DNA of 64,000 nucleotides from Candidatus Wildermuthbacteria bacterium RIFOXYD1_FULL_50_12. GTDB lineage: Bacteria; Patescibacteriota; Minisyncoccia; Minisyncoccales; UBA10102. Positions 6,488 to 34,160 of this stretch are shown piece after piece. The notes under the pieces were generated by a model, which saw only the letters and a list, made by a program, of their open reading frames with translations, ran no database searches and was not told the DNA's origin. The DNA lies in the NCBI GenBank assembly GCA_001825035.1, contig MHUO01000004.1, positions 155,476 through 219,475 on the forward strand. Reading direction: 5' to 3'. The translations under genes were made by a program, and so were the position numbers. Positions within the stretch are counted from its first letter, which is position 1, and the number at the start of each line of letters is the position of its first letter.

Positions 6488-6490
6488 TCC

Positions 6491-9125: not shown

Positions 9126-9149
9126 CAAATAATAAGGAGTAATAAAACT

Positions 9150-10022: not shown

Positions 10023-10025
10023 ATC

Positions 10026-10592
10026 ATGAAAGAAATAATCAAAAGCCACATAGAGGCCCATATTGATACGGTACGTAAGTTTGTAAATGAGATGCCCGAC
10101 ATTGAAGGCGTGGCTGTGCTTTGCGTGGAAGCTTTACGATCGGGAAACAAGGTTTTGGTGGTGGGCAATGGCGGCTCCGTGGCAGATGCCCACCACTTTG
10201 CAGCAGAACTTGTGGGAAGATTCAGAAAGGAACGAAGAGCTCTGCCAGTTATTGCGCTGGACATAAATCCTTCGGCGATAACTGCCATTTCAAACGATTA
10301 TGCATTTAAGCATGTGTTCGCGAGGCAGGTAGAAGCATTGGCCAGACCAGGCGATGTGTTCTTCGGAATAAGCACTTCTGGCAATTCAGAGAATGTGTTG
10401 GAGGCAATAAAGGCCGCAAGGCAGGCTGGCTGCAAGGTAGTAGGCTTAACAGGGAGGGGAGGGGGAAACATGAAAGAGATATGCGATTTTCTGATTAATA
10501 TCCCCGCAGAAGATACCCCGCGCATTCAGGAAATGCACGCGCTTGTTATTCATATGCTATCGGATTTGATCGAAAGTACGCTGTTTGAATAA
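10026..10592 (+). CDS. gmhA: Phosphoheptose isomerase (SIS domain, GmhA)
   Basis: VLVVGNGGSVADAHHFAAELVGRF matches the GmhA signature. 188 aa, SIS domain only. Confidence 0.75.
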   Translation: MKEIIKSHIEAHIDTVRKFVNEMPDIEGVAVLCVEALRSGNKVLVVGNGGSVADAHHFAAELVGRFRKERRALPVIALDINPSAITAISNDYAFKHVFARQVEALARPGDVFFGISTSGNSENVLEAIKAARQAGCKVVGLTGRGGGNMKEICDFLINIPAEDTPRIQEMHALVIHMLSDLIESTLFE

Positions 10593-10595
10593 GAT

Positions 10596-13763: not shown

Positions 13764-14747
13764 ATGATGCAAGGGAATATTTCTAACGGGATAAATCTCA
13801 AAGGCAAAACAGTTTTGGTCACTGGAGGCGCGGGGTTTATCGGCAGCCATGTGGTGGATCGGCTTGTTGAAGAAGGCGCCCGCGTTGTTGTGTTGGACAA
13901 TTTGTCTTCCGGAAGCAAGGAAAACCTGAATTCCAAAGCCGTGTTCTATCAGGCAGATGTGAAAGACATGCAGGAGGTGCGAGGTATAATCCAAAAGGAA
14001 GCGCCCTCGGCAGTTTTCCATTTGGCTGCCCAACCTCTTGTGGAGACCGCGTACGAAAACCCTTTAGAGACGCTCGAGGTGAATTTTATGGGTACTGTGC
14101 ATGTGCTGGAAGCTTGCAGACTAAATGGAAATCTCGAAGCAATTGTTGTGGTTTCTTCAGATAAGGCATACGGCAAATCGAAAACATTGCCTTACGCAGA
14201 AGATATGCCGGTCGGGGGAGACCACCCGTACGAAGTTTCAAAGGCGGCCGGCGATCTGACGGCCCAGAGTTATTTTAAAACTTATGGAATGCCAGTGGCT
14301 ATTGCGAGATTCGGCAATACCTTTGGGCCGCGCGACCGGAATTGGGGGAGAATTATTCCAGATTGTTTCCAGGCCATTTTGAAGAATAAAGAGCTGGTTA
14401 TACGGAGCGACGGGAAAATGGTGCGGGAGTATGTGTATGCAAAAGACGTGGCAGAAGCATGCTTCAGGCTTGCTCAGCACATTGAGAGTAGTAAGGGAGG
14501 GGCGTTCAATTTTGGAAGCGACAATATCTTAAACGTGCTTGAGGTTGTGCAGGAGATAGAAAAGATATTGGAAGTAAAAATTCCTTATAAAATATTGAAC
14601 ACCGCCAAGAACGAAATCCCCAAGCAGTATTTGGATTGGAGCAAAGCAAAACGCATGCTCGCCTGGCAGCCAAAGTATACCTTCGCCCAAGGCATCCGCG
14701 AATCCTTTGAGTGGTATAAAGAGAATATGATGCACTTTGAAAAATAA
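13764..14747 (+). CDS. rfbG: CDP-glucose 4,6-dehydratase (RfbG/DdhB)-like NAD-dependent dehydratase
   Basis: FHLAAQPLVETAYENPLETLEVNFMGTVHVLE, VVVSSDKAYG and GGDHPYEVSKAAGD align with Salmonella RfbG motifs (FHMAAQPLVRLSYEQPIETY..., ITSDKCY, YSNSKGCAEL). GxxGxxG N-terminus. Confidence 0.7.
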   Translation: MMQGNISNGINLKGKTVLVTGGAGFIGSHVVDRLVEEGARVVVLDNLSSGSKENLNSKAVFYQADVKDMQEVRGIIQKEAPSAVFHLAAQPLVETAYENPLETLEVNFMGTVHVLEACRLNGNLEAIVVVSSDKAYGKSKTLPYAEDMPVGGDHPYEVSKAAGDLTAQSYFKTYGMPVAIARFGNTFGPRDRNWGRIIPDCFQAILKNKELVIRSDGKMVREYVYAKDVAEACFRLAQHIESSKGGAFNFGSDNILNVLEVVQEIEKILEVKIPYKILNTAKNEIPKQYLDWSKAKRMLAWQPKYTFAQGIRESFEWYKENMMHFEK

Positions 14748-14854: not shown

Positions 14855-15550
14855 ATGGACAAGTCCTTGATGACAAATGAAAATACAGAATTTCGCAGCA
14901 AGGTTTTGTCGACGTTGAGAGCTCTTAAGTTTGACAGGGGCAGCAAGCTGATGATTCCGATTTATAACAAAGAGGAAGTGGTAGCTCATTTGGTGCCATT
15001 GACCGCGGATTTTACCAACGAAGAGGTGAAGCTTCTTGCCGAATGGCGGGAAGCAAACGCCCAATGGTTCCCTTCGCAATTTAAAGTTACAGAAGAAGGA
15101 ACAAAAAAGTGGGTGCAAGCCCAAGTGATTGAAGCTGAAGACCGGATCTTGTTTTGGATTCAAGCTTTAGACGGTTCTTTGCTCGGTCACATAGGTCTTT
15201 ACCGATTCGATTTTGAAGACCGTTCATGCGAGATTGACAACGTCATGAGAGGAAAGCAAGATGCAATGCCGGGGATTATGACCATGGCGCTTAAGAGTTT
15301 ATTGCACTGGTCATTCACTACCTTAGAGCTTCAAGCTCTTACGTTGCGGGTATTTTCTGATAACGAAAGAGCAATAGTTTTGTATCAACGGTGCGGGTTT
15401 GAAAAGGTAAGAGATATACCACTCAAGAAAGTGGTGAGCGAAACCATGACCCAGTGGGTGGAGAGCGAAAACGGCTCTGAAGAAAAAGTCGAACGATATT
15501 TTAGACAGTTTCGCATAACAAAACTAAAGTACGATACGCAGAACAAATAA
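14855..15550 (+). CDS. GNAT-family N-acetyltransferase (possible sugar N-acetyltransferase, PseH-like role)
   Basis: LGHIGLYRFDFEDRSCEIDNVMRG...RAIVLYQRCGFEKV has the GNAT fold signature. Confidence 0.5.
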   Translation: MDKSLMTNENTEFRSKVLSTLRALKFDRGSKLMIPIYNKEEVVAHLVPLTADFTNEEVKLLAEWREANAQWFPSQFKVTEEGTKKWVQAQVIEAEDRILFWIQALDGSLLGHIGLYRFDFEDRSCEIDNVMRGKQDAMPGIMTMALKSLLHWSFTTLELQALTLRVFSDNERAIVLYQRCGFEKVRDIPLKKVVSETMTQWVESENGSEEKVERYFRQFRITKLKYDTQNK

Positions 15551-15560: not shown

Positions 15561-16682
15561 ATGAACGAGAAACACATCATAGACAAAATGATACTTACTG
15601 CTGGGCCATCTATAACCCAGAAAGAAATTGATTATGTTATGGACGCCGTGAAAAACGGCTGGTATGAGAATTGGAACGGCTACCTCAAAAAGTTTGAGCA
15701 AAAATTTGCTGAATACGTGGGAACAAAATATGCCATAGCCACGTCTTCTTGCACGGGAGCTATGCATATAGCGTTGGCAGCCTTGCGCGTAGGAAGGGGC
15801 GATGAAATTATTGTTCCTGAAACAACCTGGGGGGGGACGGCTGCTGTCGTAACGTATGTGGGCGCCACGCCTGTTTTTGTGGATATTGAAAGAGATACGT
15901 GGACCATGGATCCTGAAAGCTTAAAAAAGGCGATAACTCCGAAAACAAAAGGGATCCTTTCTGTGCATTTATATGGCCATCCCGCCAATATGGACGAAAT
16001 CACACGCATCGCGAAAGAGCATGGCCTCTTTATCTTGGAAGACGCGGCTCCCTCTATTGGTTCAGAATACAAGGGCAGGAAGACAGGAAGCTTGGGAGAC
16101 GCGGCGGCCTTTAGTTTTCAAGGAGCAAAATTATTGGTTACGGGAGAAGGAGGAATGCTGGTAACAAGCGATGAGAATATATATGAACGAGCATGTTTCT
16201 TGGCTGATCAGGGCAGAGATTCTCATAGGCAATTTTACATAAATGAAATCTCGTATAAATACAAGATGTCTAACATTCAAGCTGCTCTCGGTTTGGCGCA
16301 GCTGGAAAGGATAAACGAGCTGCTGGAGAAGAAAAGGCGTATTTATGAATGGTATACATCCAGTCTTGGAGGGAAGAAAGGCATTACCTTAAGTGCGGAG
16401 AAAGACTGGGCCAAAACCAATCACTGGATGTCTTCTATACTTTTAGAAGATACCGTTCAAATCGACAGGGAAGAATTGAGGGCAAAATTGAAAGAGAGAA
16501 ATATAGATACACGGCCTATTTTCCCTCCGATAAGCAACTTTCCTATGTTTACAAAGGGTAAGAACCCGGTTGCTGAATTTGTGGGGCAGAGAGGGATTAA
16601 TCTTCCGAGCCCAATGACCTTAACCAAAGAACAGGCAGATTATGTCGCAGAGAATGTGCTGGATTTAACTGGAGTTTCGTAA
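15561..16682 (+). CDS. DegT/DnrJ/EryC1/StrS-family PLP-dependent sugar aminotransferase
   Basis: Family-typical N-terminus with ATSSCTGAMHIALAAL. Active-site Lys region FSFQGAKLLVTGEGG. Confidence 0.8.
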   Translation: MNEKHIIDKMILTAGPSITQKEIDYVMDAVKNGWYENWNGYLKKFEQKFAEYVGTKYAIATSSCTGAMHIALAALRVGRGDEIIVPETTWGGTAAVVTYVGATPVFVDIERDTWTMDPESLKKAITPKTKGILSVHLYGHPANMDEITRIAKEHGLFILEDAAPSIGSEYKGRKTGSLGDAAAFSFQGAKLLVTGEGGMLVTSDENIYERACFLADQGRDSHRQFYINEISYKYKMSNIQAALGLAQLERINELLEKKRRIYEWYTSSLGGKKGITLSAEKDWAKTNHWMSSILLEDTVQIDREELRAKLKERNIDTRPIFPPISNFPMFTKGKNPVAEFVGQRGINLPSPMTLTKEQADYVAENVLDLTGVS

Positions 16683-17486
16683 ATGGATTATAGCAGTTTG
16701 GCAAAACAGATCCGGCAGAATATCGTGCGTATGGCTTTTTTGGCCAAAAATTCTCATGTGGCTTGTGCCTTGTCGTGCGCCGATATTCTTACGGTCTTGT
16801 ATTTCGGCATCTTATCAATAGATCCGAAAAATCCTCAGGGGCCGCGCGACCGGTCTATTCTAAGCAAAGGGCACGCGGCATCGGCTTTGTACGCTACGCT
16901 CGCCCAGCGAGGATTTTTCCCTGCGGAGGTTCTTGATTCCTATTGTAAAGATGGAGGAATGCTGCCGGGACATTGCACAAAGGACTGTGTGCCTGGCGTT
17001 GAAGTTTCCACAGGATCTCTTGGCCACGGCTTGTCTATTGGAGCCGGCATGGCGCTTGCTGAAAAGAGGGGCAATGGAAAGGAGCGAGTATTTGTGCTTT
17101 TGAGCGATGGAGAATGTGACGAAGGTGCCTTGTGGGAAGCGGCACTCTTTGCCAGCCATCATGAGCTGGACAATCTTGTTGCTATTGTAGACTACAATAA
17201 GTTTCAGGGCTTTGGAAAAACAAGCGATATTTTGAACTTGGAACCTTTCCAGGAAAAGTGGGAAGGCTTTGGCTGGGCTGTAGTAAGCGTAGACGGGCAT
17301 AACTATGAGGAACTCGAGCGAGCGCTGAAAGCTATTCCGCAAGAGCAGAGGAAACCCACAGTGCTTGTGGCGCATACCATAAACGGGAAGGGAGTATCGT
17401 ATATGGAAAATAAGTTAGAGTGGCACTATAAATCGCCAAACGAAGAACAATATCAGCAGGCGCTAGAAGAAATTCGATCTCTATGA
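16683..17486 (+). CDS. Transketolase, N-terminal (ThDP-binding PP domain) subunit
   Basis: SKGHAASALYATLAQRGFF and GSLGHGLSIGAGMALA...LLSDGECDEGALWEAALFASHHELDNLVAIVDYNK are split-Tkt N-subunit motifs. Confidence 0.8.
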   Translation: MDYSSLAKQIRQNIVRMAFLAKNSHVACALSCADILTVLYFGILSIDPKNPQGPRDRSILSKGHAASALYATLAQRGFFPAEVLDSYCKDGGMLPGHCTKDCVPGVEVSTGSLGHGLSIGAGMALAEKRGNGKERVFVLLSDGECDEGALWEAALFASHHELDNLVAIVDYNKFQGFGKTSDILNLEPFQEKWEGFGWAVVSVDGHNYEELERALKAIPQEQRKPTVLVAHTINGKGVSYMENKLEWHYKSPNEEQYQQALEEIRSL

Positions 17487-18412
17487 GAAAAGCGTTTTGC
17501 GACAGTTTACTTGAAACGGCAGAAAAAGACGAAAGTGTTATTCTTATTACCAACGATTTGGGGTTTTCTGTGTTGGAGCCGTTTGAACAAAAATTTGCCA
17601 AACGCTTTTTGAACGTGGGAGTCGCAGAACAGAATATGATTGGTGTCGCGGCAGGGCTTGCGCTTTCAGCGAAAAAAGTTTTCGTGTATTCCATTGTGCC
17701 TTTTGTTACCATGCGCTGTTTTGAGCAGATTCGAAATGATATATGTTCTGCAAATTTGCCCGTTGTATTGGTTGGAGTGGGAGGCGGCTTATCATACGGC
17801 ACCGCAGGTCTTACCCACCATTCTTTAAACGACATTGCGATTATGAGAAGTCTGCCAAATATGGAGGTTTTTTGTCCGGGAGATCCTGCAGAAACGCGGG
17901 CAGTTATGGCGTATCTTGCTATATCGCAAAACCCTGCATATCTGCGTATTGGGAAAGGAAATGATCCTATGGTGTATGAGAAGACACCTGATTTTACGCC
18001 TGGAAAGGCAATTCTTCTGCAGGATGGGAGCGATATTAGCATTTTCGCAACGGGGAATATTTTATGGAATGCGAGAGAAGCTGCAAAGATTCTCGGCCAA
18101 ACTGGGTTGAGTGTGCGTTTGCTCAGCATGCCAAGCGTGAAACCCATTGATGAAGAGGCAATACACAAAGCGTCGCGAGAGACGAAGGCCATTTTCTCTA
18201 TTGAAGAACACAGTATTATCGGCGGGTTAGGAGGGGCAGTTGCCGAAACGGTGGCAGAGTATAAAGATGCAAAGCCGTTTTTTGCGCGTATTGGATTTCC
18301 GGACAGCTTTTGCAAAGAGGTTGGGAGCCAGGAATATCTGCGGCAAGCATACGGATTATCAGCGCAAGCGATAGCAGAACGCGTCCAGAACCTTATAAAG
18401 GGTATTCTATGA
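17483..18412 (+). CDS. Transketolase, C-terminal (Pyr + C-terminal domain) subunit
   Basis: FLNVGVAEQNMIGVAAGLALSAKKVFVYSIVPF and LPVVLVGVGGGLSYGTAGLTHHSLNDIAIMRSLPNM. Full length, 309 aa. Confidence 0.8.
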   Translation: MRKAFCDSLLETAEKDESVILITNDLGFSVLEPFEQKFAKRFLNVGVAEQNMIGVAAGLALSAKKVFVYSIVPFVTMRCFEQIRNDICSANLPVVLVGVGGGLSYGTAGLTHHSLNDIAIMRSLPNMEVFCPGDPAETRAVMAYLAISQNPAYLRIGKGNDPMVYEKTPDFTPGKAILLQDGSDISIFATGNILWNAREAAKILGQTGLSVRLLSMPSVKPIDEEAIHKASRETKAIFSIEEHSIIGGLGGAVAETVAEYKDAKPFFARIGFPDSFCKEVGSQEYLRQAYGLSAQAIAERVQNLIKGIL

Positions 18413-19710
18413 AAACAGAGAAACAATTGCGAAAAGAAATTTTAAATCTGACAAAAGAATTTTATCGGGCGCGAAAACAGCAAGAGCCGTTTATCCCCGG
18501 GGAAACGCAGATTAGCTATGGTGGTCGCGTGTACAACGAAAAAGAAATGATGAATTTGGTAGATGCTGCTTTGGATTTTTGGCTTTCCATGGGCAGATTT
18601 GCAGAGCAATTCGAAAAAGAATTTGCCTCGTTCCTCGGAGTAAAGTATTGTTTACTCACAAATTCTGGGTCTTCTGCAAACCTGCTTGCTGTTTCGGCGC
18701 TCACTTCTCCAAAACTGGGGGAAAGGCGGCTGAAGCCGGGTGATGAAGTTATCACCACTGCGTGCGGATTTCCTACCACACTCAATCCCATTGTGCAGAA
18801 TAATCTTGTTCCTGTTTTTCTCGATGTTGAGCTCGACACGTATAATATTAAGGTTGGAGATATTGAAAAGGCGCTTTCTCCAAAAACAAAGGCAATTTTT
18901 GTGGCTCACGGTCTTGGCAATCCCGCGAACCTTCGGGAGCTTGGGCGTATCGCAAAGAAATATAATCTATGGCTTATTGAAGACAATTGCGATGCCGTAG
19001 GATCGAAGTATCAGGGAAAGTACACGGGAACCTTTGGCGATATTGCTACCTGCAGTTTTTACGCAAGCCACCATATGACTATGGGGGAAGGAGGCGCGGT
19101 GCTCACGAGCAACGGAACACTCAAGAAGATTATTGCTTCTTTTCGAGATTGGGGCAGGGAGTTCGACGAACCTGGAATGCAAACCGACCGGTTTTCCTCG
19201 AAAGTGGGAGAATTGCCTTTCGGATACGATCGCAGGTACATCTTTTCCCATATCGGATACAATCTAAAGATTACTGATCTACAGCCTGCTATTGGTTTGG
19301 CGCAGCTCGAAAAGCTGCCCTCGTTTATAGAAGCACGGAAAAAGAATTTTGCCGCGCTTAAAAAAGCTCTTGAGCCCTATAGCGGGTTTCTTGCTTTTCC
19401 CCGGCAAGAAAAAGAGGCAGATCCCTGCTGGTTTGGCTTTCCGATGCTTGTAAAGCAGACTGCTCCTTTCACCAGAAAAGAAATGGTGGAGTTTTTGGAA
19501 GAGCGGAAAGTCATGACGCGTATGTTCTTGGGCGGCAATCTTTTAAAGCAGCCCGCGTACAAAGACATACAATATCGGGTTTTCGATTCTCTAAGCAACA
19601 CCGATTCGATTATGGAGCATTTGCTGTGGATTGGCGTCTATCCTGGCATCACGAAAGAAAAAATGCGCTATATGACTGGCGTACTGCTGGGGTTTTTTGG
19701 AGCCGTATAG
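18409..19710 (+). CDS. rfbH: CDP-6-deoxy-D-xylo-4-hexulose 3-dehydrase (E1, RfbH/DdhC), PMP-dependent
   Basis: FEKEFASFLGVKYCLLTNSGSSANLLAV is the RfbH signature. Internal ATG 18409 overlaps the tktC stop (ATGA). Confidence 0.75.
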   Translation: MKTEKQLRKEILNLTKEFYRARKQQEPFIPGETQISYGGRVYNEKEMMNLVDAALDFWLSMGRFAEQFEKEFASFLGVKYCLLTNSGSSANLLAVSALTSPKLGERRLKPGDEVITTACGFPTTLNPIVQNNLVPVFLDVELDTYNIKVGDIEKALSPKTKAIFVAHGLGNPANLRELGRIAKKYNLWLIEDNCDAVGSKYQGKYTGTFGDIATCSFYASHHMTMGEGGAVLTSNGTLKKIIASFRDWGREFDEPGMQTDRFSSKVGELPFGYDRRYIFSHIGYNLKITDLQPAIGLAQLEKLPSFIEARKKNFAALKKALEPYSGFLAFPRQEKEADPCWFGFPMLVKQTAPFTRKEMVEFLEERKVMTRMFLGGNLLKQPAYKDIQYRVFDSLSNTDSIMEHLLWIGVYPGITKEKMRYMTGVLLGFFGAV

Positions 19711-19721
19711 AGATAAGATGC

Positions 19722-20699
19722 ATGAAGAATAAAGTAGCTGTTGCTATCCCAACATATAACAGACTTGCGTATCTCAAAGAATGTATCGAAAGTATCCTGA
19801 ACCAGATGTTTCAGGATTTCTCTCTTTTTGTATTTGATAACGCTTCAGACGAGCCGGTCGAACAGGAACTGCAAAAGTACCAAGACGAGAGGTTGCATTT
19901 TATCGGCAGCACTCAAAATACAGGACCTGTCGGAAATATTAACCGTATTTTGGAGTATCCCTTCGATTCAGAATACGTAGCCATATTTCATGATGATGAT
20001 GCGATGCATCCAAAAAAACTTGAGCTGCAGAGTTCTTTTTTGGACGCCCATCAGGATGTGCTATTTGTAGCTTCAGATTTCAATGAGGTTTCAGACAAAA
20101 CTATTCACGCTTTTGCAGGTTTTGACGAGAACAACGTAAAGAGCGCTATGTATAAAAATCCCTATGAGTTTGTGCGAGCGGAGATGTCGTGGTTGCGGTG
20201 TGCGTTTGGTTCAGTTATGTATAGAAAAAACGCTTTTCTTGCTGGTCGAATGCAGGCGGACAAGTTTTCAGAGTTTGCCGATTTGGTGTTCCTTATGGGA
20301 ATTTCCAAAAAAGGGCCTTGTGCTTTCTTGAAAGCTCCCTTGATGAATTATCGCATTCACCCCGGGCAAAACAGAGTGCTTGGTCAAGAATACGAACAAG
20401 GCGCTATGGAAATGCTTTCTTTTTGCAGAGAAAGCCTGCCTGCTGCGTTAGATAAGAAGGATGAAATGCTGCTTCGCAGATATTCTGTCAATTTCTTGCT
20501 TAGGGCTTGCGCCCATATCAACAAAGGATTTTTTTATTCACTGCGATTTCTACAAAAGTGCCATCAGCAACAGTTTATCCGATACAGAGATTTTCGATAT
20601 ATTGATGCGCACGGATTGGTTTCTGCAGTAAGCATAGTATTAAAAAGCAAAAAAATAATTAGCGCAGCACGATGGGCGAGAAGTTTGTTTCGATTATAG
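19722..20699 (+). CDS. Glycosyltransferase family 2
   Basis: VAVAIPTYNRLAYLKECIESILNQ...FVFDNASDE (GT2 DxD context). Start at ATG 19722, because the upstream ATG 19718 runs into a stop. Confidence 0.7.
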   Translation: MKNKVAVAIPTYNRLAYLKECIESILNQMFQDFSLFVFDNASDEPVEQELQKYQDERLHFIGSTQNTGPVGNINRILEYPFDSEYVAIFHDDDAMHPKKLELQSSFLDAHQDVLFVASDFNEVSDKTIHAFAGFDENNVKSAMYKNPYEFVRAEMSWLRCAFGSVMYRKNAFLAGRMQADKFSEFADLVFLMGISKKGPCAFLKAPLMNYRIHPGQNRVLGQEYEQGAMEMLSFCRESLPAALDKKDEMLLRRYSVNFLLRACAHINKGFFYSLRFLQKCHQQQFIRYRDFRYIDAHGLVSAVSIVLKSKKIISAARWARSLFRL

Positions 20700-21619
20700 T
20701 CCCTTGCTTCAACGAGGAGCGGCATATTGCAGAGTGTTTGGATTCGATACTTGCAAATAACTATCCTGCAGGGAAGGCGGAGATTTTAGTAGTGGATGGA
20801 ATGAGCAAGGATCGCACGCGAGAAATCATACAAAGGTACTCTATACCCAATACTCAATACTCTATACGTCTCCTAGATAATCCAAAAGTTATCACACCCG
20901 CGGCAATGAATATTGGGATTCAGGCAGCGAAGGGAGACGTGATTATCAAGATGGACGCACACTGCGTATATGCGAAAGATTACATCTCAAAGTGTGTCCG
21001 GCACCTGCGGGAATCCAACGCTGATAATGTGGGTGGGGTTCTAAAAGCCGTTCCCCCTAAAAATACTCTTATGGCGAAAGCCATAGCCCTTTCTCTTTCG
21101 CATGTATTTGGGGTAGGGGGTTCCTATTTCAGGACGGGCGCGGACCAGCCAAGAGAAGTAGACACCGTTGCCTTTGGTTGCTATCGCAGAGAAGTCTTTG
21201 AGAAGATCGGCCCGTATGATGAACGGATGGAAAAAACCGAGGATCTAGAGTTGAATTATCGGTTAGGAAAGGCAGGAGGGAGAATAATGTTGTTCCCCGA
21301 TATTAAGGCCGTATATTATCCTTCATCTGACACGCTGGGTTCATTTTTCCGTCACAACTTTACCGATGGCATCTGGGCGACTTATCCTCTGAAATATGGC
21401 TTCAAAGTTTCCTTGCGACATCTTATTCCCTTAATTTTTGTTCTAACCCTCCCAGTAAGTATCTGGCTCTACATTCCGGTCTCCTTGTTTTTCTCCTTAA
21501 AAATTGCGATAGTAGAGAACAACGTTGCATTATTTCTTGTTCTGCCGTTCGTTTTCGCAGCTCGTCATATCGGGTACGGCTTGGGATCTTTAGTTGGTCT
21601 CGCAAAAATAATTCTATGA
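20672..21619 (+). CDS. Membrane-anchored GT2 polyprenyl-phosphate glycosyltransferase (DPM1/GtrB/ArnC-like)
   Basis: VSIIVPCFNEERHIAECLDSIL...VVDGMSKDRT, plus C-terminal TM helices. Confidence 0.65.
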   Translation: MGEKFVSIIVPCFNEERHIAECLDSILANNYPAGKAEILVVDGMSKDRTREIIQRYSIPNTQYSIRLLDNPKVITPAAMNIGIQAAKGDVIIKMDAHCVYAKDYISKCVRHLRESNADNVGGVLKAVPPKNTLMAKAIALSLSHVFGVGGSYFRTGADQPREVDTVAFGCYRREVFEKIGPYDERMEKTEDLELNYRLGKAGGRIMLFPDIKAVYYPSSDTLGSFFRHNFTDGIWATYPLKYGFKVSLRHLIPLIFVLTLPVSIWLYIPVSLFFSLKIAIVENNVALFLVLPFVFAARHIGYGLGSLVGLAKIIL

Positions 21620-22446
21620 CTACACAAGAACTCCTGCAACGGTTAGAAGCTCTCAATGAGAAGGCAAGCTCAGAATGGCTCGCGTCTTTGGAAGAGAGAA
21701 AGCGCAAAGAAATTGAGTTTCACAACGTTGATAAGGCGGGTAAAGAAAACGTCTCTCAAGATATCTATGAGAAAATTCATGAAAACGCAAAGTTTTACAA
21801 AACAACCCAGTTGAGCGGCGAGTATATAAACGACTGGATTGCGCGTCATTCTAGGGGCAAGATATTTCTTGACTATGCGTGCGGCAATGGGACCAATGCC
21901 ATAAAGGCGGCAAAAGCAGGGGCCGAGCTTGCTATTGGTTTGGATATCAGCGATGTTTCCATAGCGAACGCCCGGGCGCTTGCGCAAAAGGAAGGAGTTT
22001 CAAGAAATACGTATTTTGTCCAAGGCGATTGCGAAAATACCGGTCTCCCGGACAACTGCATTGATGTAGTTCTTTGCGCCGGCATGCTGCACCATTTGGA
22101 TTTAAGTTACGCTTTTCCCGAATTGAGAAGGATTATAAAAAAAGGTGGAGTGATACTGGCGGTTGAAGCGCTGGACTGCAATCCCGCTATTAAGGCCTAT
22201 CGCATGCTTACCCCTCATTTGCGCACCGATTGGGAAAAACGCCACATTCTTTCCTACAAAGAGATTGCCTTTGCAAGAAGGTTCTTTGAGGTCAAAGAGA
22301 TTAAGCATTGGCATTTGTTTAGCATTTTGGGTGCGTATGTGCCTTCCGGTCTGGCTTTTCTCAATACCTTGGACAAATTCGTACTCAACCTCCCCCTAAT
22401 TAAGTTGATGTCGTGGATGTTCACCTTTGAGCTGCACAAAGAGTAG
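21616..22446 (+). CDS. Class I SAM-dependent methyltransferase (paralog of 22622..23386)
   Basis: LDYACGNGTNAIKAAKAGAELAIGLDIS. Shares an EERKRKEIEFHN-like N-terminus with the next methyltransferase. Confidence 0.6.
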   Translation: MTTQELLQRLEALNEKASSEWLASLEERKRKEIEFHNVDKAGKENVSQDIYEKIHENAKFYKTTQLSGEYINDWIARHSRGKIFLDYACGNGTNAIKAAKAGAELAIGLDISDVSIANARALAQKEGVSRNTYFVQGDCENTGLPDNCIDVVLCAGMLHHLDLSYAFPELRRIIKKGGVILAVEALDCNPAIKAYRMLTPHLRTDWEKRHILSYKEIAFARRFFEVKEIKHWHLFSILGAYVPSGLAFLNTLDKFVLNLPLIKLMSWMFTFELHKE

Positions 22447-22450
22447 AAAT

Positions 22451-22482
22451 TTGACATTCTCACTCTTTTGTGCTTCTATAAG
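22451..22482 (+). promoter_or_regulatory. Candidate sigma70 promoter (TTGACA ... TATAAG) at the head of a structured intergenic element
   Basis: TTGACA at 22451-22456, with a TATAAGAT / TTCTAT -10-like element 17-20 nt downstream. Confidence 0.35.
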
Positions 22483-22621
22483 ATGCAGAGGATTGAGTAA
22501 CCTCTAATCTGCTGCAGGAGGCAGACAGTGGGTAGTGAAGGGGTTCACGTGTGCAACGTGGACCCCTTATCTTATAAGAATTGTTTTTGCGAGAGAAAAT
22601 GGGTAAGATTGAACATATTGT

Positions 22622-23386
22622 ATGGAAGAAAGGAAGCGAAGGGAAATTGAATATTATGACGCTGAAGCGGTCCGCCAAAGAGTAAGCAGTTTTGTGCCTT
22701 CGGCTTTGGGAAGTTATCAATTTTTGTACAAAGTTGCGACACCCTGGATAAAGGGCAAAAAAGTGCTGGACTACGGATGTGGCGATGGCCGGCATACGCA
22801 GTTTCTCGCCGAACATGCGAAAGAAGTGATAGGAATTGATTTGTCAGAGAGATCTTTGGAAATAGCAAAGAAGATTGCGGTGCGAGAAGGTGTAGAGGAG
22901 AAAGTGAAGTTTTTGAAAATGGACTGCGAGGCAATGGAGTTTCCTGACAATTCGTTTGACGTAGTATTTGACGGCGGCACGTTTTCTTCTCTGGATTTTG
23001 AAAAGGCGATAGGAGAAATTATGCGCGTGCTGCAGCCGGACGGAGCGCTCGTGGGCATCGAAACGTTTGGGCACAATCCTTTGACAAATGCAAAGCGGGT
23101 GCTGAACCGCCTTACGGGCAAGAGAACGGCATGGGCCGCCTCGCACATCGTGCAGCAAAAAGAACTTGAGCGTTTAAGGCAGAATTTTGAGCAAATTGAG
23201 GTTTTCTATTTCCATCTTATTTCTTTGTCCGCGTTTCCGTTGCTCGATTTACCAGGAGGGCGCCTTGTGCTACGATTGCTTGAAGGAATTGATAACTTAC
23301 TCCTGCACATTCCTTTTCTGCAAAAGTACTCGTTCAAAGTAGTATTCTTGTGCAAAGACCCACGATATGGTAAAAAGATTACTTGA
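22622..23386 (+). CDS. Class I SAM-dependent methyltransferase (paralog of 21616..22446)
   Basis: VLDYGCGDGRHTQFLAEHAKEVIGIDLS and DVVFDGG. Confidence 0.6.
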   Translation: MEERKRREIEYYDAEAVRQRVSSFVPSALGSYQFLYKVATPWIKGKKVLDYGCGDGRHTQFLAEHAKEVIGIDLSERSLEIAKKIAVREGVEEKVKFLKMDCEAMEFPDNSFDVVFDGGTFSSLDFEKAIGEIMRVLQPDGALVGIETFGHNPLTNAKRVLNRLTGKRTAWAASHIVQQKELERLRQNFEQIEVFYFHLISLSAFPLLDLPGGRLVLRLLEGIDNLLLHIPFLQKYSFKVVFLCKDPRYGKKIT

Positions 23387-23960
23387 TCTCGTACTCTCTT
23401 CTATCGGACTGTTTCTCGCCTCGCCTTTTCTTCTTATCATTGCGCTTGCAATAAAGCTGGATTTGCCGGGGCCTGTATTTTACAGAGGCGTGCGGGTAGG
23501 GAAGCATGGAAAACAGTTTCGCATGTTTAAGTTTCGCAGCATGGTAGCAAACGCAGACAAAATCGGAGGGCCATCAACAGCAGGAGATGATCCTCGGCTT
23601 ACTCCTGTAGGGAAGCTTTTGAAGAAATATCAGTTGGACGAACTTCCCCAGCTTTTCAATGTGCTGAGAGGCGAGATGAGTATTGTGGGGCCGAGGCCTG
23701 AGGTTCCTTTGTATGTGGATATGATGACAGAAGAGGAGAAACGTGTTATTCTCTCTGTGCGGCCGGGGATGACGGACTGGGCTTCTTTGTGGAATTTTCA
23801 CGAAGGGGAAATTTTGCGGGGAAGCAAGGATCCGGAAAAAACATATCAGGAGAAAATTCGGCCCGAAAAAATCCGCCTGCAGATGAAGTACGTGAAAGAA
23901 CGAAATCTTTGGGTGGACTTAAAAATTATTGTCAAGACGGTTCTGGAGATATTTCAATGA
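23367..23960 (+). CDS. Small monotopic polyprenyl-phosphate sugar-1-phosphate transferase (PglC/WbaP C-terminal-domain-like initiating transferase)
   Basis: KRLLDLVLSSIGLFLASPFLL...DLPGPVFYRGVRVGKHGKQFRMFKFRSM...LDELPQLFNVLRGEMSIVGPRPE is the bacterial sugar transferase family signature. Confidence 0.8.
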   Translation: MVKRLLDLVLSSIGLFLASPFLLIIALAIKLDLPGPVFYRGVRVGKHGKQFRMFKFRSMVANADKIGGPSTAGDDPRLTPVGKLLKKYQLDELPQLFNVLRGEMSIVGPRPEVPLYVDMMTEEEKRVILSVRPGMTDWASLWNFHEGEILRGSKDPEKTYQEKIRPEKIRLQMKYVKERNLWVDLKIIVKTVLEIFQ

Positions 23961-24748
23961 CAGCCAATGAATACAACAACATAGCGAACGACGCTCGGAA
24001 AAAAGTGCTTGAGATGATTTATCGGGCTCAATCGAGTCATCTTGGAAGCAATTTTAGTTGCATTGATATCTTGAGCGTTCTTTTTGAACGGATGGATTTA
24101 AAGAAAGATAAGTTTATTGCAAGTAAGGGTTGGGTTGCAGCTTCCGTGTATTATTTTCTTTCCCAAAAGGGTGTTATACCCGAGGCGGATTTGGAACGAT
24201 ATTGTCAGCCGGGCGAAGAGAAGTACATCGGTCTCGTTGAGCCAAGAGGAGTATTCGGTATGGAATTTGCGGGAGGGAGTATGGGGTATGGCTTGCCTGC
24301 TGGCGTTGGTTTTGCGCTCGCAAAAAGATTAAACAGAGAGGAGGGGAATATTCACGTACTTATGTCAGACGGAGAGATGCAAACAGGAACGACATGGGAA
24401 TCGGTGCTTATTGCTAAACACCACAATCTTTCCAATGTGGTGGTTTGGGTGGACAACAATCGCCTGCAGGCGATGGGAGAAACAAAAGCTATCCTCAACG
24501 TGGAGCCTATAGATGAGCGCGTGCGATTGTTCGGGTGGGACGTCCAGCGAATAGACGGTCATGATTTTCTCGCTACTGAGTCTGTCTTCCAGAAACTTGG
24601 AGGATCTTCACCGCATATGATTGTATGCGACACGGTGAAAGGGAAAGGGTGGAAGCGAGCGGAACATAACAATCTTTATCATTATAAGAACATTTCCGAG
24701 GAAGAATTTACCGAAGCAATGCAAGAATTATCAGCTTCCCATGGGTGA
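23957..24748 (+). CDS. Transketolase N-terminal subunit, second copy
   Basis: HLGSNFSCIDILSVLF and GSMGYGLPAGVGFALAKRLNREEGNIHVLMSDGEMQTGTTWESVLIAKHHNLSNVVVWVDNNRLQ. Internal ATG 23957 overlaps the upstream stop. Confidence 0.7.
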   Translation: MTANEYNNIANDARKKVLEMIYRAQSSHLGSNFSCIDILSVLFERMDLKKDKFIASKGWVAASVYYFLSQKGVIPEADLERYCQPGEEKYIGLVEPRGVFGMEFAGGSMGYGLPAGVGFALAKRLNREEGNIHVLMSDGEMQTGTTWESVLIAKHHNLSNVVVWVDNNRLQAMGETKAILNVEPIDERVRLFGWDVQRIDGHDFLATESVFQKLGGSSPHMIVCDTVKGKGWKRAEHNNLYHYKNISEEEFTEAMQELSASHG

Positions 24749-25247
24749 AATAATCCAACAACAGGATAATCGGCGAGCGTTTATTGACACGCTCTGCGAA
24801 CTGGCTGAAAAAGACAAGAACATCGTTTTTATTATCCCGGATGTCGGGTTTAACTATGCAGAGAAATTCCAGAAATTGTATCCGGAGCGTTTTTTCAATT
24901 TCGGCGTGACAGAAGCAAGCTCAACCATTATTGCAGCCGCCCTGGCTTTGGACGGAAAGAAACCCTATCTTTATTCCATGATCAATTTTGTTACGTTCCG
25001 CGTGCACGAAATGTTACGCAACGCCGTGTGTATGCACCAGGCAAATGTCAAAATACTCGGAGTAAAGGGATCTGAAAAATACAAACTTTTGGGCTTTAGC
25101 CATAATCTTCTTGCCGAAGACGAGGAGATAGATTTTTTGAATAAGTTGCCTGGCATGAAAACGTATATTCCCCAAACCCCAGAAGAAACAAGGAATATTA
25201 TTTTGGAAACGTACCAGTCGCCAACTCCTGCTTACATTAGATTGTAA
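24741..25247 (+). CDS. Transketolase C-terminal subunit, second copy, truncated (Pyr domain only, 168 aa)
   Basis: FNFGVTEASSTIIAAALALDGKKPYLYSMINF. It lacks the ~130-aa C-terminal domain present in the 309-aa first copy. Confidence 0.6.
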   Translation: MGEIIQQQDNRRAFIDTLCELAEKDKNIVFIIPDVGFNYAEKFQKLYPERFFNFGVTEASSTIIAAALALDGKKPYLYSMINFVTFRVHEMLRNAVCMHQANVKILGVKGSEKYKLLGFSHNLLAEDEEIDFLNKLPGMKTYIPQTPEETRNIILETYQSPTPAYIRL

Positions 25248-25310: not shown

Positions 25311-26525
25311 ATGGCAAGATCTGCTTTTGGAGCTTTGGGCCGCGAGGTTCGAACAAGGAATATTTCCAAACGTATCCAAAAAACAGTCCTCTCGCCGATT
25401 AAAGAGATGTCGCTTTTGGCTGACGAGGCTGGAGGGGATATTATCTCTTTTGGTCAAGGCATCCCATACTTTGATACGCCAGAGTATATTAAAGACGGCA
25501 TCCGCGCCGCCCTGCAAGAAAAAGATACGGCGCGCTATACGTTAGAGCCCGGCATTACCGAACTGCGAGAGCTTATCGCAAAAGATTTAATGACGCGCAA
25601 GGGGATTCAAGGCGTCAATTTCAGGCGCGAAGTTATGGTAAACAGCGGCTGCCAAGAGGCGATTATGTGCGCTCTGGCCACGCTTATTGATGAGGGCGAC
25701 GAGGTGCTTTTGCTTTCGCCTTCCTTCGCTTCCTATTCAGAACAGATTCTCCAACTTGGCGGCACACCCGTGTTTGTGCCGCTGGAGGAGGAGCGTGGCT
25801 GGCGCTTGAATACGCAAGCGGTACGCGACGCGATAAGCAAGAAAACGAAAGCGATTTTGTTTTCCCATCCGTCAAACCCCACAGGCACTGTTTTTACCAA
25901 AGAAGAGCTGAGGAGTTTAACTGATATTGCCAAAGAAAACGATTTAGTGGTGATTGTTGACGAAACATACGATTTTCTTACCTACGAAGGCATTGAGCAT
26001 GTTTCGCCAGCTTCTTTTCCCGACATTCGAGACCGCGTGATTCTGTGCGGGAGTTTTTCCAAAAAGTACGCGCTTACCGGTTACCGAGTGGGGTATGCGT
26101 TTGCCGAGCAGGGGATTATGGATCATATGCTCAAAGTGCACGACGCCCTGCAGATTTGCGCGCCCGCCATTTCTCAAAAGGCCGCCATTGCCGCGTTGCG
26201 CGGAGATCAGAAAAGCGTTGCAGAATTCAGGGAGAAGCTTGGAGAGAATCGCGAACGTATGTGTCAGAAATTGGACGAACTCTCCGATTTTTTTGAATAC
26301 CAAAAACCAGATGGTGCTTATTATATCCTTGCCAAGGTGGAAAAACCGCAGATGCCTTCGGTTGAGCTCGCGATAAAAATTCTCCGAGAGGCCAAAGTGA
26401 TTACCATCCCCGGAATTGCGTTTGGGCCCGCGGGCGAAGGCCACTTGCGGTTCTCTTTTGCCTGCAGTCCCGAGGAGATTGAAGAGGGTTTCCGCCGTCT
26501 TGCAAACTGGTTCAAGGCCCTTTAG
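25311..26525 (+). CDS. Class I/II PLP-dependent aminotransferase (AspC-like)
   Basis: NISKRIQKTVLSPIKEM...GDIISFGQGIPYFDTP aligns with the AspC N-terminus (LSKRVQSIKPS...GEPDFDTP). Lys region SFSKKYALTGYRVGY. Confidence 0.7.
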   Translation: MARSAFGALGREVRTRNISKRIQKTVLSPIKEMSLLADEAGGDIISFGQGIPYFDTPEYIKDGIRAALQEKDTARYTLEPGITELRELIAKDLMTRKGIQGVNFRREVMVNSGCQEAIMCALATLIDEGDEVLLLSPSFASYSEQILQLGGTPVFVPLEEERGWRLNTQAVRDAISKKTKAILFSHPSNPTGTVFTKEELRSLTDIAKENDLVVIVDETYDFLTYEGIEHVSPASFPDIRDRVILCGSFSKKYALTGYRVGYAFAEQGIMDHMLKVHDALQICAPAISQKAAIAALRGDQKSVAEFREKLGENRERMCQKLDELSDFFEYQKPDGAYYILAKVEKPQMPSVELAIKILREAKVITIPGIAFGPAGEGHLRFSFACSPEEIEEGFRRLANWFKAL

Positions 26526-27340
26526 GAGATGAGGATGGATAAGACCGTGCGATCCGAACCGAATGTTTCCGGGTTCTCTTTCGCCTTTTGGGCGGAAAAT
26601 GCATCCAACGTCGATGTATTTCCTTTCCGAAGTAGGTTTACGAATTCGGGGAATTGGAAATACGGCTCAAAACCATCGGAGTATAACACGATAAGATCTT
26701 CAGAATGGACGCGTACGGTGCCTATTCTGTAATACAACGCGGCCTCTTGCTCTCCGGTAAAAGCGCCGTATCCTGATCCGTTAGAATTATTGCGCAGTTC
26801 TTTTTTTATCAATTCTCGTCTCTCTCTTACGTCTTCCATCTGCATGTAAGGAGCAATTATTGGTTTGAGTGTGTTTTCCGTTTGAAACAAGAGCTCGTTA
26901 TTTTTATTGAACAAAGCGAGGCCGCAATCGCTGAGATACCCATAGAGAAGAGCGGAGCGAGAGATTGTCGCGGCAACGCCTACGCAGTCAAAAAAGTCCC
27001 GCTCCCGATAATTGATGGCGCTCTTGGTCATCCCCTCGTTTTCGTTCATCTCGCGGATTCTGTCGTTTGCGAAGTTGAGTGCTTCGCGGATTGTTTCTTC
27101 CTGCGGATTCGCGCCTTTCTCAAATTCTTTTTCGAGATACTCAAGGATACTCTGACAGAAAATTTGAGCCGCGGCTCTCGCGCCCGCAGGATAAGAATAG
27201 CGCAGATCTTCAGCTACATATCGTGTGACGCCGTCTGCAACTGAAAAAATGGGGTACTTTTCTGAAGCCAAAAAATAATCCTCGTTGGGCTTTCGATTGA
27301 ATTTAACGGCATCCGTGTAGGTGGCGGAAAATGTGCGCAT
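26522..27340 (-). CDS. PP2C/PPM-family protein phosphatase domain protein (paralog 1)
   Basis: KPNEDYFL...FSVADGVT (motif 1-2 like), LYSDGF (motif 8), SDRTVLSI (motif 11). Similar architecture to the upstream paralog. Confidence 0.5.
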   Translation of the reverse strand: MRTFSATYTDAVKFNRKPNEDYFLASEKYPIFSVADGVTRYVAEDLRYSYPAGARAAAQIFCQSILEYLEKEFEKGANPQEETIREALNFANDRIREMNENEGMTKSAINYRERDFFDCVGVAATISRSALLYGYLSDCGLALFNKNNELLFQTENTLKPIIAPYMQMEDVRERRELIKKELRNNSNGSGYGAFTGEQEAALYYRIGTVRVHSEDLIVLYSDGFEPYFQFPEFVNLLRKGNTSTLDAFSAQKAKENPETFGSDRTVLSILIS

Positions 27341-27370
27341 ACGAGCTGATTATACCTGCGGCGTAGCTCG

Positions 27371-27410
27371 AATGAAAGAGCCCCCGACACGGTCGTGCGG
27401 TGTCGGGGGC
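27371..27410 (-). terminator. Candidate intrinsic terminator between the two PP2C-like genes
   Basis: 11-bp stem GCCCCCGACAC/GTGTCGGGGGC (27380-27390 / 27400-27410), followed on the minus strand by UCUUUCAUU. Confidence 0.45.
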
Positions 27411-27438
27411 TTTGCAGTTGCGAGACGGTGGCGTTCGT

Positions 27439-28335
27439 TTAGAACACGAGCGCTATCGCTGTTGCTTCAGCCTGCTTTATATAGTTGGTTGCTGCGATTT
27501 GTTTCTCTGCGGCGCGCGCCGAGAGCAGAAGGCCTGCGAGTCCGCCGAGTTTAAACTCAGCAAGAAGTGTGCGGCAGGCTTCCTCACCGCTCGAGGTCTC
27601 CACGGATTTCGGCATCATACCGTCCGTGACGAGTAAGAGAGTGCTTACCTCTTCGAGGGGGAGAGCCCATTCTTGAAGCAGGTGGACGAGCGCGTCTTGC
27701 CCGTTGAGGATACCGTATCCTTGCGGACTTGCAGGATTGTTGGCATCTCGGCGTCTCGCATTGCGGAGCGGCTGGTAGAAGCGATTCCACATCTCACTCC
27801 GCACGGTGTCGCGATGTTCTTCTGGTACTTTTTCGAGGGTGAGTCCGAATAGTTCTCGCGCGACTTCGCGCTGGAGTCGTTTGATCTGAGCACGCATCTC
27901 TTCTTCATGGCGTTTGGCCTGGTTTGGCGTCACGAGAATTGTGTCACCTTTTAGCTCCACAATCGCCAGGCAGTTGCCTGCCTGTACTATGTTTACGCTT
28001 TTGTCATCAACCCATGCGAAGGCGAGAACGGCACCGGCAAGCTCTCCCGCGTCATCCAGCACGCCGGCATCTCGCTGTACCTTGCCAACCACCTTGTTTA
28101 TATCCAGAACAAGGTTGCGAAGGTCGGGCGACGTTGTGTGGATATGAGCAAACCTCTCGCACGTTCGCGCTACCATTTCACCGCCCGACATCCCGTCAAA
28201 CATCCGAGGAGGGGACTTTGGTGCGTATGGCGCGCTTGTGCCGTCGAGAACTCCGAAAACCCGGCTTCCCACCACGATGAGTCCGTCCTCGCGGTGTGGG
28301 GCGGAACCTTGATCATAGATTGTGCTGACCTTCAA
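27439..28335 (-). CDS. PP2C/PPM-family protein phosphatase domain protein (paralog 2)
   Basis: HREDGLIV...FGVLDGTS, LLLVTDGM and AIALVF. Same motif order as 26522..27340. Confidence 0.5.
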   Translation of the reverse strand: MKVSTIYDQGSAPHREDGLIVVGSRVFGVLDGTSAPYAPKSPPRMFDGMSGGEMVARTCERFAHIHTTSPDLRNLVLDINKVVGKVQRDAGVLDDAGELAGAVLAFAWVDDKSVNIVQAGNCLAIVELKGDTILVTPNQAKRHEEEMRAQIKRLQREVARELFGLTLEKVPEEHRDTVRSEMWNRFYQPLRNARRRDANNPASPQGYGILNGQDALVHLLQEWALPLEEVSTLLLVTDGMMPKSVETSSGEEACRTLLAEFKLGGLAGLLLSARAAEKQIAATNYIKQAEATAIALVF

Positions 28336-34124: not shown

Positions 34125-34160
34125 CCCGCCCCGACGTTATGTCGGGGCGGATTTGTTTTT
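34125..34160 (+). terminator. Intrinsic terminator (10-bp GC stem CCGCCCCGAC/GUCGGGGCGG plus U-tract)
   Basis: Perfect stem at 34126-34135 / 34141-34150, loop GUUAU, then AUUUGUUUUU. Confidence 0.65.

Follow-up and report, generated by a model that had tools for sequence, protein, structure and literature searches.

A 64,000-nucleotide window of the candidate phyla radiation (CPR) genome Candidatus Wildermuthbacteria bacterium RIFOXYD1_FULL_50_12 (contig MHUO01000004.1, positions 155,476 to 219,475 of the forward strand) encodes two heteromeric thiamin diphosphate (ThDP) enzymes of the transketolase superfamily, each within its own, separate nucleotide-sugar module. Both lie in a very large one-strand glycan locus that runs from window position 26 to ~31.5 kb and holds GDP-heptose genes, a NeuB/CMP-transferase ulosonic-acid set, Wzx, polysialyltransferase-like and GT10 transferases, and then the transketolase-like region (Table 1). 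Neither pair is likely to be a pentose-phosphate transketolase. We propose that the pairs perform YerE-like carbon branching of nucleoside diphosphate (NDP) 4-keto-6-deoxyhexoses, with pair 1 adding a hydroxyacetyl and pair 2 an acetyl-type group. The proposal draws on analogy with characterized enzymes, and we judge it evenly poised between right and wrong. What appears new is a candidate sugar-branching enzyme of the transketolase superfamily in surface-glycan loci, with a very wide distribution and a minimal form in CPR.

An earlier note on this DNA had placed both pairs in one RfbF-RfbG-RfbH pathway to a branched 3,6-dideoxy sugar and described them as bracketing rfbH. The genes it named were all confirmed at the coordinates it gave, with strong family matches (E-values of 1e-18 to 1e-115). 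RfbH does not stand alone between the pairs, as six genes separate them: RfbH, two GT2 glycosyltransferases, two methyltransferases, and a PglC-like Bac_transf protein. A single pathway for both pairs was rejected because their two contexts recur independently elsewhere. Pair 2 belongs to a separate conserved module that consists of a PglC-like transferase, the transketolase-like pair, a DegT aminotransferase, and a PglF-like dehydratase.

Gene content of the two modules

Table 1. Genes of the transketolase-like region, in window coordinates.
Feature	Position	Strand	Size and family match
RfbF-like sugar-1-phosphate (probably glucose-1-phosphate) cytidylyltransferase; predicted first step of module A	12914..13714	+	NTP_transferase 3.9e-18
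RfbG-like NDP-hexose 4,6-dehydratase; would yield the 4-keto-6-deoxy intermediate of module A	13764..14747	+	Epimerase/GDP_Man_Dehyd 1e-58
GNAT N-acetyltransferase	14855..15550	+	Acetyltransf_3 4.5e-14
DegT1, DegT-family sugar aminotransferase	15561..16682	+	DegT_DnrJ_EryC1 3.3e-115
TktN1, PP-domain (ThDP diphosphate-binding) subunit of pair 1	16683..17486	+	267 aa; Transketolase_N 2.4e-38
TktC1, Pyr + TKC subunit of pair 1	17483..18412	+	309 aa; Transket_pyr 5.3e-33, Transketolase_C 2.6e-23
RfbH, E1-type CDP-4-keto-6-deoxyglucose 3-dehydrase; would yield the 3,6-dideoxy-4-keto sugar	18409..19710	+	433 aa; NF011936
Two GT2 glycosyltransferases	19722-20699, 20672-21619	+	Pfam
Two S-adenosylmethionine methyltransferases	21616-22446, 22622-23386	+	Pfam
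PglC-like small phosphoglycosyl transferase (Bac_transf); first gene of module B	23367..23960	+	Bac_transf 3.1e-61
TktN2, PP-domain subunit of pair 2	23957..24748	+	263 aa; Transketolase_N 3.9e-22
Pyr-only subunit of pair 2, no TKC domain	24741..25247	+	168 aa; Transket_pyr 3.2e-18
AspC-like class I aminotransferase	25311..26525	+	404 aa; Aminotran_1_2 2.9e-62
Two PP2C-like genes, inserted into module B and outside the pathway	26522..28335	-	PP2C_2
DegT2, sugar aminotransferase of module B (PglE/PseC-like)	28438..29568	+	DegT_DnrJ_EryC1 1.5e-99
PglF/CapD-like membrane-anchored UDP-N-acetylhexosamine (HexNAc) 4,6-dehydratase of module B	29584..31458	+	Polysacc_synt_2 2.8e-113 + CoA_binding_3

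The open reading frame (ORF) of the RfbF-like protein that starts module A opens at a TTG at 12863 and has its first ATG at 12914. Its score against TIGR02623 is 246.7 bits, under the cutoff of 300, and the RfbG-like dehydratase scores 210 bits against the CDP_4_6_dhtase model (cutoff 278) and 194 bits against the dTDP-glucose dehydratase model. Because both proteins fall under their NCBIfam equivalog cutoffs, the CDP-glucose assignment of module A is likely but not certain. RfbH scores 648 bits against equivalog NF011936, above the cutoff of 423.

The PP, Pyr, and TKC domains of pair 1 are all present and are divided between two genes. The gap between DegT1 and TktN1 is 0 nt. ATGA-type start/stop overlaps connect TktN1 to TktC1 and TktC1 to RfbH, and in module B they connect Bac_transf to TktN2 and TktN2 to the Pyr-only gene. 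By these overlaps, the genes of each pair are translationally coupled. DegT1 scores below cutoff against the LegC family (321 bits). Another locus, L005, has an orthologous GNAT::DegT fusion (507 bits against DegT1) directly after TktC, with an RfbF/RfbG/RfbH operon nearby and no NeuB; this links the GNAT and DegT1 of the window with pair 1 and not with the ulosonic-acid genes. A GNAT also precedes TktN in L046. The GNAT is proposed to acetylate the amine made by DegT1. The earlier note had aminotransferases following the pairs. This is correct for pair 2, which is followed by the class I aminotransferase and the second DegT, but DegT1 and the GNAT precede pair 1.

Module B has the same gene order in other CPR contigs. 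In L001, L088, and L089 the order is Bac_transf, TktN2-type subunit, 168-residue Pyr subunit, DegT, PglF-like dehydratase, and Wzy_C, and in some contigs murB and secA come next, as they do in the window. The window version has this order plus the class I aminotransferase and the two minus-strand PP2C-like genes. The latter break an otherwise conserved junction, and in L001, L088, and L089 DegT directly follows the Pyr subunit. The GC content rises from ~0.45 to ~0.51 at roughly 26 kb and drops again at 36-44 kb. The pathway enzymes of module B score below their cutoffs on the models for related routes (DegT2, 214 bits against PseC; the PglF-like dehydratase, 171 bits against PseB).

Module B does not always include the class I aminotransferase: L001, L006, and 11 B-type loci have it, whereas L088 and L089 do not. 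An amination step by this enzyme, as suggested earlier, is not implied. It resembles broad-specificity amino-acid/2-oxoacid enzymes, and we conjecture that it may supply the 2-oxoacid donor or regenerate glutamate for DegT. The GT2 and methyltransferase genes are assembly and tailoring genes that lie between the modules, and their order is repeated in the related CPR locus L006.

Distribution and recurrent contexts

A scan of one genome per species found relatives of TktC1 in at least 548 species of bacteria and archaea. C-subunit relatives that are 53-60% identical to TktC1 occur in Zixibacteria, Chloroflexi, Nanoarchaeota, and other groups. Eighty loci were fetched and annotated with the proteins of the window as the only queries, on crude stop-to-stop ORFs, and contexts were counted in the 40 loci with at least 5 kb of flank on each side. 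The RfbF/RfbG/RfbH (module A) type accounted for 13 of the 40, the Bac_transf/DegT/PglF (module B) type for 24, and 3 had neither. A short-chain dehydrogenase/reductase (SDR) gene is immediately upstream of the pair in 12 of 23 A-type loci. Bac_transf is directly upstream of the pair in L001, L088, L089, and 11 of 29 B-type loci, and DegT is immediately downstream in 15 of the 29. Full-length pairs occupy the module B slot in other phyla, so in CPR the Pyr-only pair fills the same slot; pair 2 is the CPR version of the Bac_transf/DegT/PglF context. In an unbootstrapped neighbor-joining tree the module B pairs form a coherent clade, the module A pairs are basal, and the Pyr-only clade is a separate long branch.

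Two transketolase-like pairs occur together in the window, L006, and L027. In L027 (Candidatus Levybacteria) they stand in direct tandem at 9150-12689, after RfbF-RfbG-SDR. The second N subunit of L027 has His66 replaced by Trp and His100 by Cys and is partnered by a full-length C subunit, and this pair is intermediate between the two families of the window.

Among the N-subunit relatives, five representatives are fusions of an NDP-sugar-type extended SDR to TktN. Further fusions are TktC::TktN::SDR, NDP-hexose C-methyltransferase::TktN, FkbM-methyltransferase::TktN, and GT2::TktN. The 996-residue protein P0370 is a permuted single chain of TktC (Pyr + TKC), TktN, and SDR, and the 675-residue P0282 joins an NDP-hexose C-methyltransferase to TktN; both look useful for expression studies. 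A cultured example is found on a plasmid of Paenibacillus cellulosilyticus KACC 14175, where the order is glycosyltransferase, methyltransferase, rfbF, rfbG, methyltransferase, SDR::TktN, TktC, TylF methyltransferase, and glycosyltransferase, and the proteins have the family signature. That cluster offers no carbonyl other than the 4-keto group. The plasmid search otherwise returned mostly ~42%-identical rhizobial transketolase-family genes.

Active-site substitutions

Residues are numbered as in Escherichia coli transketolase (EcTK). The reference was the split transketolase of Carboxydothermus hydrogenoformans (6YAK/6YAJ), an active enzyme with the nearest solved structure. It gives the best match in both structure and sequence (268, 220, and 136 bits, the first for TktN1 against the 6YAK N chain and the second for TktC1 against 6YAJ) and has the same α2β2 split. 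The cofactor site is intact in both pairs and conserved across both families. The ThDP/Mg motif (G/S)DG-X-N reads SDGECDEG...DYN in pair 1 and SDGEMQTG...DNN in pair 2, and the catalytic, cofactor-activating glutamate (Glu411) lies in GVAEQN and GVTEAS, respectively. The Arg358, Arg520, and His473 equivalents are also conserved in both pairs.

The acceptor side is altered in both families. C. hydrogenoformans transketolase has the motifs 'THAG...GEDGxSHQ' and 'DADLSKST', whereas the proteins studied here have 'GVGGG...YGxAGxTHH' and 'TGDLGFSV' or 'GVKGS...FLGFSHN' and 'IPDVGFNY'. Every one of the 120 TktC1-family clusters has 'GVGGGLSYGxAGxTHH' in place of the canonical 'THAGxxxGEDGxSHQ', and the Pyr-only family has GVKGSEKYKFLGFSHN there. 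Neither family thus retains the His461 and Asp469 equivalents: all 120 clusters of the former have Gly and Ala/Leu/Gln at these positions, and the latter has Lys and Leu. In transketolase, the aldose-phosphate acceptor is held by His461 and Asp469 at its phosphate and C2-hydroxyl. From these substitutions we infer that the pocket is larger and takes another acceptor, whose anionic group may still anchor it.

The donor side distinguishes the two pairs. All four N-subunit donor histidines (the His26, His66, His100, and His261 equivalents) are present in pair 1 and its family, and the motif columns of TktN1 are SH / SKGH / PGH / SDGE..N / WHY. Alignment of TktN2 to 6YAK shows His66 changed to Trp and His100 to Leu. 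Of the 150 best 50%-identity representatives, 14 have this W/L signature, and none of the closest full-length ones, down to 42% identity, lacks it. DXP synthase (DXS), also of the transketolase superfamily, uses pyruvate and has a hydrophobic residue at position 100, like the Leu of pair 2; it is Phe in all DXS (PMC7661550). Engineered H100F and H100L substitutions raise the pyruvate use of transketolase, H100L to a third of that of DXS (PMC7661550). Given these mutant data, the Leu of TktN2 makes pair 2 look like a natural pyruvate-type variant, and pair 1 looks like a user of ketol (hydroxyacetyl) donors. DXS itself is a single chain with a TKC domain and an isoprenoid role, whereas the N subunits of the two pairs reach no more than 30-38 bits on DXP_synthase_N and belong to a glycan-assembly context. 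A phosphonate route for pair 2, with phosphonopyruvate decarboxylase and 2-aminoethylphosphonate transaminase, was considered and rejected on the PP-then-Pyr domain order and the lack of a phosphoenolpyruvate mutase in the Pfam scans of the window.

These residues also bear on a precursor-supply explanation, in which one or both pairs are ordinary transketolases that make sedoheptulose-7-phosphate for GDP-heptose, or a housekeeping pentose-phosphate enzyme. The window does encode GmhA (212 bits, cutoff 209), an HddA-like kinase, and an HddC::GmhB fusion, pair 1 retains all donor histidines and the Arg358/Arg520 equivalents, and the closest match of known structure is a split transketolase that is active. 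Yet the His461/Asp469 equivalents are gone family-wide, and both subunits are under the transketolase equivalog cutoff (275 and 196 bits). In full, the four proteins score 274.7, 196.2, 174.8, and 49.3 bits against NF004559 (cutoff 488); as they are half-length subunits, this comparison is a lenient one. A GmhA-like gene is near the pair in only 2 of 86 loci, while 37 of the 40 full-flank loci have the RfbF/RfbG/RfbH or Bac_transf/DegT/PglF context, and the fusion partners are NDP-sugar SDRs and C-methyltransferases. The earlier note had named a pentose-phosphate context as a refuting observation. No other pentose-phosphate genes are in the window, and the GDP-heptose pathway, which needs sedoheptulose-7-phosphate, makes precursor supply a weak rival that we regard as quite improbable.

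The Pyr-only subunit of pair 2

Pair 2 consists of PP and Pyr domains only. The earlier note described its C subunit as truncated, but the 168-residue form is a conserved architecture that is neither decayed nor a pseudogene. The length is kept in nearly all of the 120 homologue clusters listed, at 68-100% identity, in Wildermuth-, Jorgensen-, Colwell-, and Uhrbacteria, Paceibacterota, and WOR-3. An alignment of 28 sequences has 62 invariant columns. The protein ends in ...PAYIRL, and the aligned split transketolase has this motif at the close of its Pyr domain. Its AlphaFold model (pLDDT 81, pTM 0.80) superimposes on the 6YAJ Pyr domain with a TM score of 0.85 and a root mean square deviation of 2.1 Å, and DXS Pyr domains rank second. 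The model indicates a complete pyrimidine-binding domain without TKC.

Decay of pair 2 into a pseudogene after loss of the C-terminal domain would account for the missing TKC, which is seen in the other transketolase-like enzymes named in PMC7661550. This explanation is effectively refuted by more than 100 clusters of exactly 168 residues from several CPR lineages and WOR-3, by the invariant columns, the confidently modeled complete domain, and the retained catalytic glutamate, and by conservation of the partner N subunit and the gene order. Strong conservation, the complete domain model, and a syntenic CPR core region beside MurB/SecA all argue that pair 2 is functional. In L003 (9215-12821) the TktN2-type and DegT genes are broken into several short ORFs and the 168-residue gene is whole; the breaks are probably assembly frameshifts and possibly real decay.

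Proposed chemistry and known systems

ThDP-dependent branching of keto sugars is established only for YerE-type and E1-type enzymes, and the transketolase type has been a hypothesis for a few Streptomyces clusters. YerE attaches an activated unit of two or more carbons at the C-4 ketone of CDP-4-keto-3,6-dideoxyglucose, and a reductase processes the branch ketone (PMC12247030, PMC9306805). The earlier note compared the pairs to YerE, and the evidence for such carbon-carbon bond formation on an NDP-4-keto-deoxyhexose is comparative, namely the contexts, the SDR and C-methyltransferase fusions, and the lost acceptor residues. The gene content, coupling, family membership, recurrent contexts, fusions, active-site substitutions, and integrity of the Pyr-only protein are observations; in the schemes that follow, the acceptor and donors, the sequence of reactions, and all products are inferred.

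In module A, the RfbF-like, RfbG-like, and RfbH enzymes would form an NDP (probably CDP) 4-keto-3,6-dideoxyhexose. TktN1/TktC1 would form the dihydroxyethyl-ThDP carbanion from a ketol donor, either hydroxypyruvate or a ketose phosphate. The carbanion would attack the C-4 ketone of a 4-keto-6-deoxy or 3,6-dideoxy hexose to give a tertiary alcohol with a hydroxyacetyl branch, in YerE-type chemistry. In most relatives the SDR would then reduce the branch ketone; in the window, amination by DegT1 and N-acetylation by the GNAT would take its place. The YerE/YerF system for yersiniose A in Yersinia pseudotuberculosis, and the related ErwE and JanthE, have the same upstream genes as module A, and an SDR is adjacent or fused in most relatives. 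YerE is a single chain of the decarboxylase (acetohydroxyacid synthase-like) superfamily, whereas pair 1 is a two-subunit enzyme of the transketolase superfamily that should transfer a hydroxylated two-carbon unit. The Pyr-TH3-PP order of YerE-type enzymes (TPP_enzyme_N/M/C) is not found in either pair; the order is PP then Pyr on two chains, with a weak TPP_enzyme_C match of 28.9 bits in TktN2.

In module B, the PglF-like dehydratase would produce UDP-4-keto-6-deoxy-HexNAc, to which TktN2 and the Pyr-only subunit would add an acetyl-type branch from a non-hydroxylated 2-oxoacid, most simply pyruvate. The donor-site changes His100 to Leu and His66 to Trp point to this step. DegT2 would then aminate a ketone, and the PglC-like transferase would place the sugar on the lipid carrier. 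Acetyl branches are modified further by reductases or transaminases in known pathways (PMC9306805). The closest functional analogue of pair 2 is the E1-like alphaKADH2 group, such as the aldgamycin pair and KbDH-alpha/beta of kibdelomycin, which are two-subunit (PP plus Pyr) enzymes and use pyruvate to place an acetyl branch on a deoxy-keto sugar (PMC12247030). The pairs differ from this group in family, as TktN1 and TktN2 score 31 and 21 bits on E1_dh but 132 and 79 bits on Transketolase_N, and the Pyr subunit of pair 2 is without the C-terminal domain that E1 beta subunits have.

Split transketolases have previously been proposed, and only proposed, for hydroxyacetyl transfer in the miharamycin and amipurimycin pathways, and 13 more were predicted, all in Streptomycetes and none characterized (PMC12247030). 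The likeness of the pairs to these enzymes is by description. Theirs is an antibiotic-cluster setting in Streptomyces, whereas ours is one of surface-glycan loci in at least 548 species, including archaea. The claim of an undescribed variant is thereby narrowed: a hydroxyacetyl role had already been suggested for the Streptomyces enzymes (PMC12247030), although it was never shown. Literature searches that linked transketolase to rfbH, O-antigen clusters, or bacillosamine returned mostly noise, save for the ThDP review and an Actinoplanes exopolysaccharide cluster (A. missouriensis wps-2) with the order methyltransferase-TktN-TktC-DegT, which was described without a functional proposal.

Other split transketolases act in aminoshikimate (Rif15A/B) and glycolyl-acyl carrier protein (ACP) (NapB/NapD, QncN/L) formation and serve here as analogues only. 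The recurrent neighbors showed no genes for 3-amino-5-hydroxybenzoic acid, ACP, or lipoyl functions.

Module B also resembles, at the Pfam level, the PglF/PglE/PglD/PglC pathway to di-N-acetylbacillosamine, with which it shares a clustered dehydratase, DegT aminotransferase, and small phosphoglycosyl transferase. The three shared enzymes are below equivalog cutoffs, and a transketolase-like pair stands where the PglD acetyltransferase would be. This position suggests another role, the generation of acyl groups. The pair would replace PglD and use acetyl- or glycolyl-ThDP, formed in a phosphoketolase-like manner, to acylate the 4-amino group made by DegT. No acetyltransferase was found within module B of the window, L001, L088, or L089, nor is an acetyltransferase family among the recurrent neighbors in B-type loci. 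Within the transketolase superfamily, phosphoketolase makes acetyl-ThDP with no redox step. Against these points, we know of no ThDP enzyme that N-acylates an amine, and the loss of His100 in pair 2 would disfavor the hydroxylated donors that phosphoketolase-type dehydration needs. Module A of the window and L005 have a GNAT alongside the pair, and a pathway to a free-amine sugar (AAT-type) requires no acyltransferase. We consider acyl generation unlikely.

Evidence that weighs against sugar branching

Several observations weigh against the branching proposal. Sugar branching by a transketolase-type enzyme has nowhere been demonstrated in vitro (PMC12247030). The DegT and SDR enzymes could act on the C-4 ketone, in the style of bacillosamine or abequose synthesis, and this would remove the proposed acceptor. 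The donor assignment of pair 2 rests on an analogy with one engineered mutant, and the retained Arg358/Arg520 equivalents fit a sugar-phosphate substrate as well. A GDP-heptose route that needs sedoheptulose-7-phosphate is encoded in the window itself. In the unbootstrapped tree the Pyr-only clade falls outside the full-length module B clade. Finally, a crude motif scan detected no ORF for a Fer2/FNR-type E3 reductase (AscD/RfbI), the iron-sulfur flavoprotein partner of RfbH, in the window or within 10 kb in 22 A-type (RfbH/RfbF) loci, and the Pfam scans of the window genes contained none either. Formation of the 3,6-dideoxy-4-keto acceptor itself is thus unproven.

The missing E3, together with the abutment of RfbH on TktC1, would also fit a role in electron supply, in which the module A enzyme oxidizes a 2-oxoacid or ketol and replaces E3 in the E1/RfbH 3-deoxygenation. 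The transketolase-like proteins have no recognizable redox-cofactor domain, however, and the family also occurs in module B and in the Paenibacillus cluster, both without RfbH. The E3 scan was crude, and E3 could be encoded elsewhere. Electron supply is very improbable.

Other features of the window

The heptose genes at 26-2884 and 10026-10592 make up a GDP-D-glycero-D-manno-heptose type pathway of an HddA-like GHMP kinase, an RmlC-like epimerase (1057-1575), a nucleotidyltransferase::GmhB phosphatase fusion (1424-2884), and GmhA. An ulosonic-acid style set at 4346-10022 encodes a PseF-like CMP-transferase, two methyltransferases, an AP_endonuc_2 TIM barrel, a GFO/IDH/MocA oxidoreductase, an SDR, and a NeuB-family synthase. 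All are below equivalog cutoffs, and no hydrolyzing 2-epimerase was seen in the set. L006 has the same set plus a KdsC-like HAD protein. At 10596-12900 a polysialyltransferase-like gene (weak PF07388 match) is followed by a GT10 (fucosyltransferase-family) gene, an arrangement that is unusual for CPR and conserved in L006.

Beyond the glycan locus, 34153-38118 encodes SecA (858 residues), a 175-residue ORF without a family match, and a 239-residue ORF with a Peptidase_C39-like segment and a terminal SEC-C zinc motif. The SEC-C motif is normally the C terminus of SecA. A TrwB/VirD4-type coupling-protein homologue with a treble-clef zinc finger lies at 49624-51261, beside phosphoglycerate kinase and a DHH-family protein.

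Implications

A further-reaching form of the branching proposal is that the Pyr-only pair is a minimal, TKC-less enzyme that makes a C-branched (acetyl or 1-aminoethyl) bacillosamine-like sugar, and that the PglC-like transferase starts the main envelope glycan with this product. In this form, and taken together with the full-length family, sugars branched by transketolase-type enzymes would be common, and overlooked, in prokaryotic surface glycans, and many 'transketolase' annotations that are taken to show a pentose-phosphate pathway in reduced genomes would be wrong. We offer it tentatively and think it rather doubtful as a whole. With their present 'transketolase' annotation, the genes could wrongly be taken to show a pentose-phosphate pathway in reduced genomes such as those of CPR. 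The families offer two natural donor-site variants, one of which copies an engineered switch (His100 to Leu), and a minimal PP + Pyr architecture. Cultured systems for a test are P. cellulosilyticus KACC 14175 and the wps-2 cluster of A. missouriensis, and enzymes of this kind are of interest as biocatalysts for chiral tertiary alcohols. If the branching proposal is true, transketolase-type branching would be a major and phylogenetically broad route in cell-surface glycan loci.

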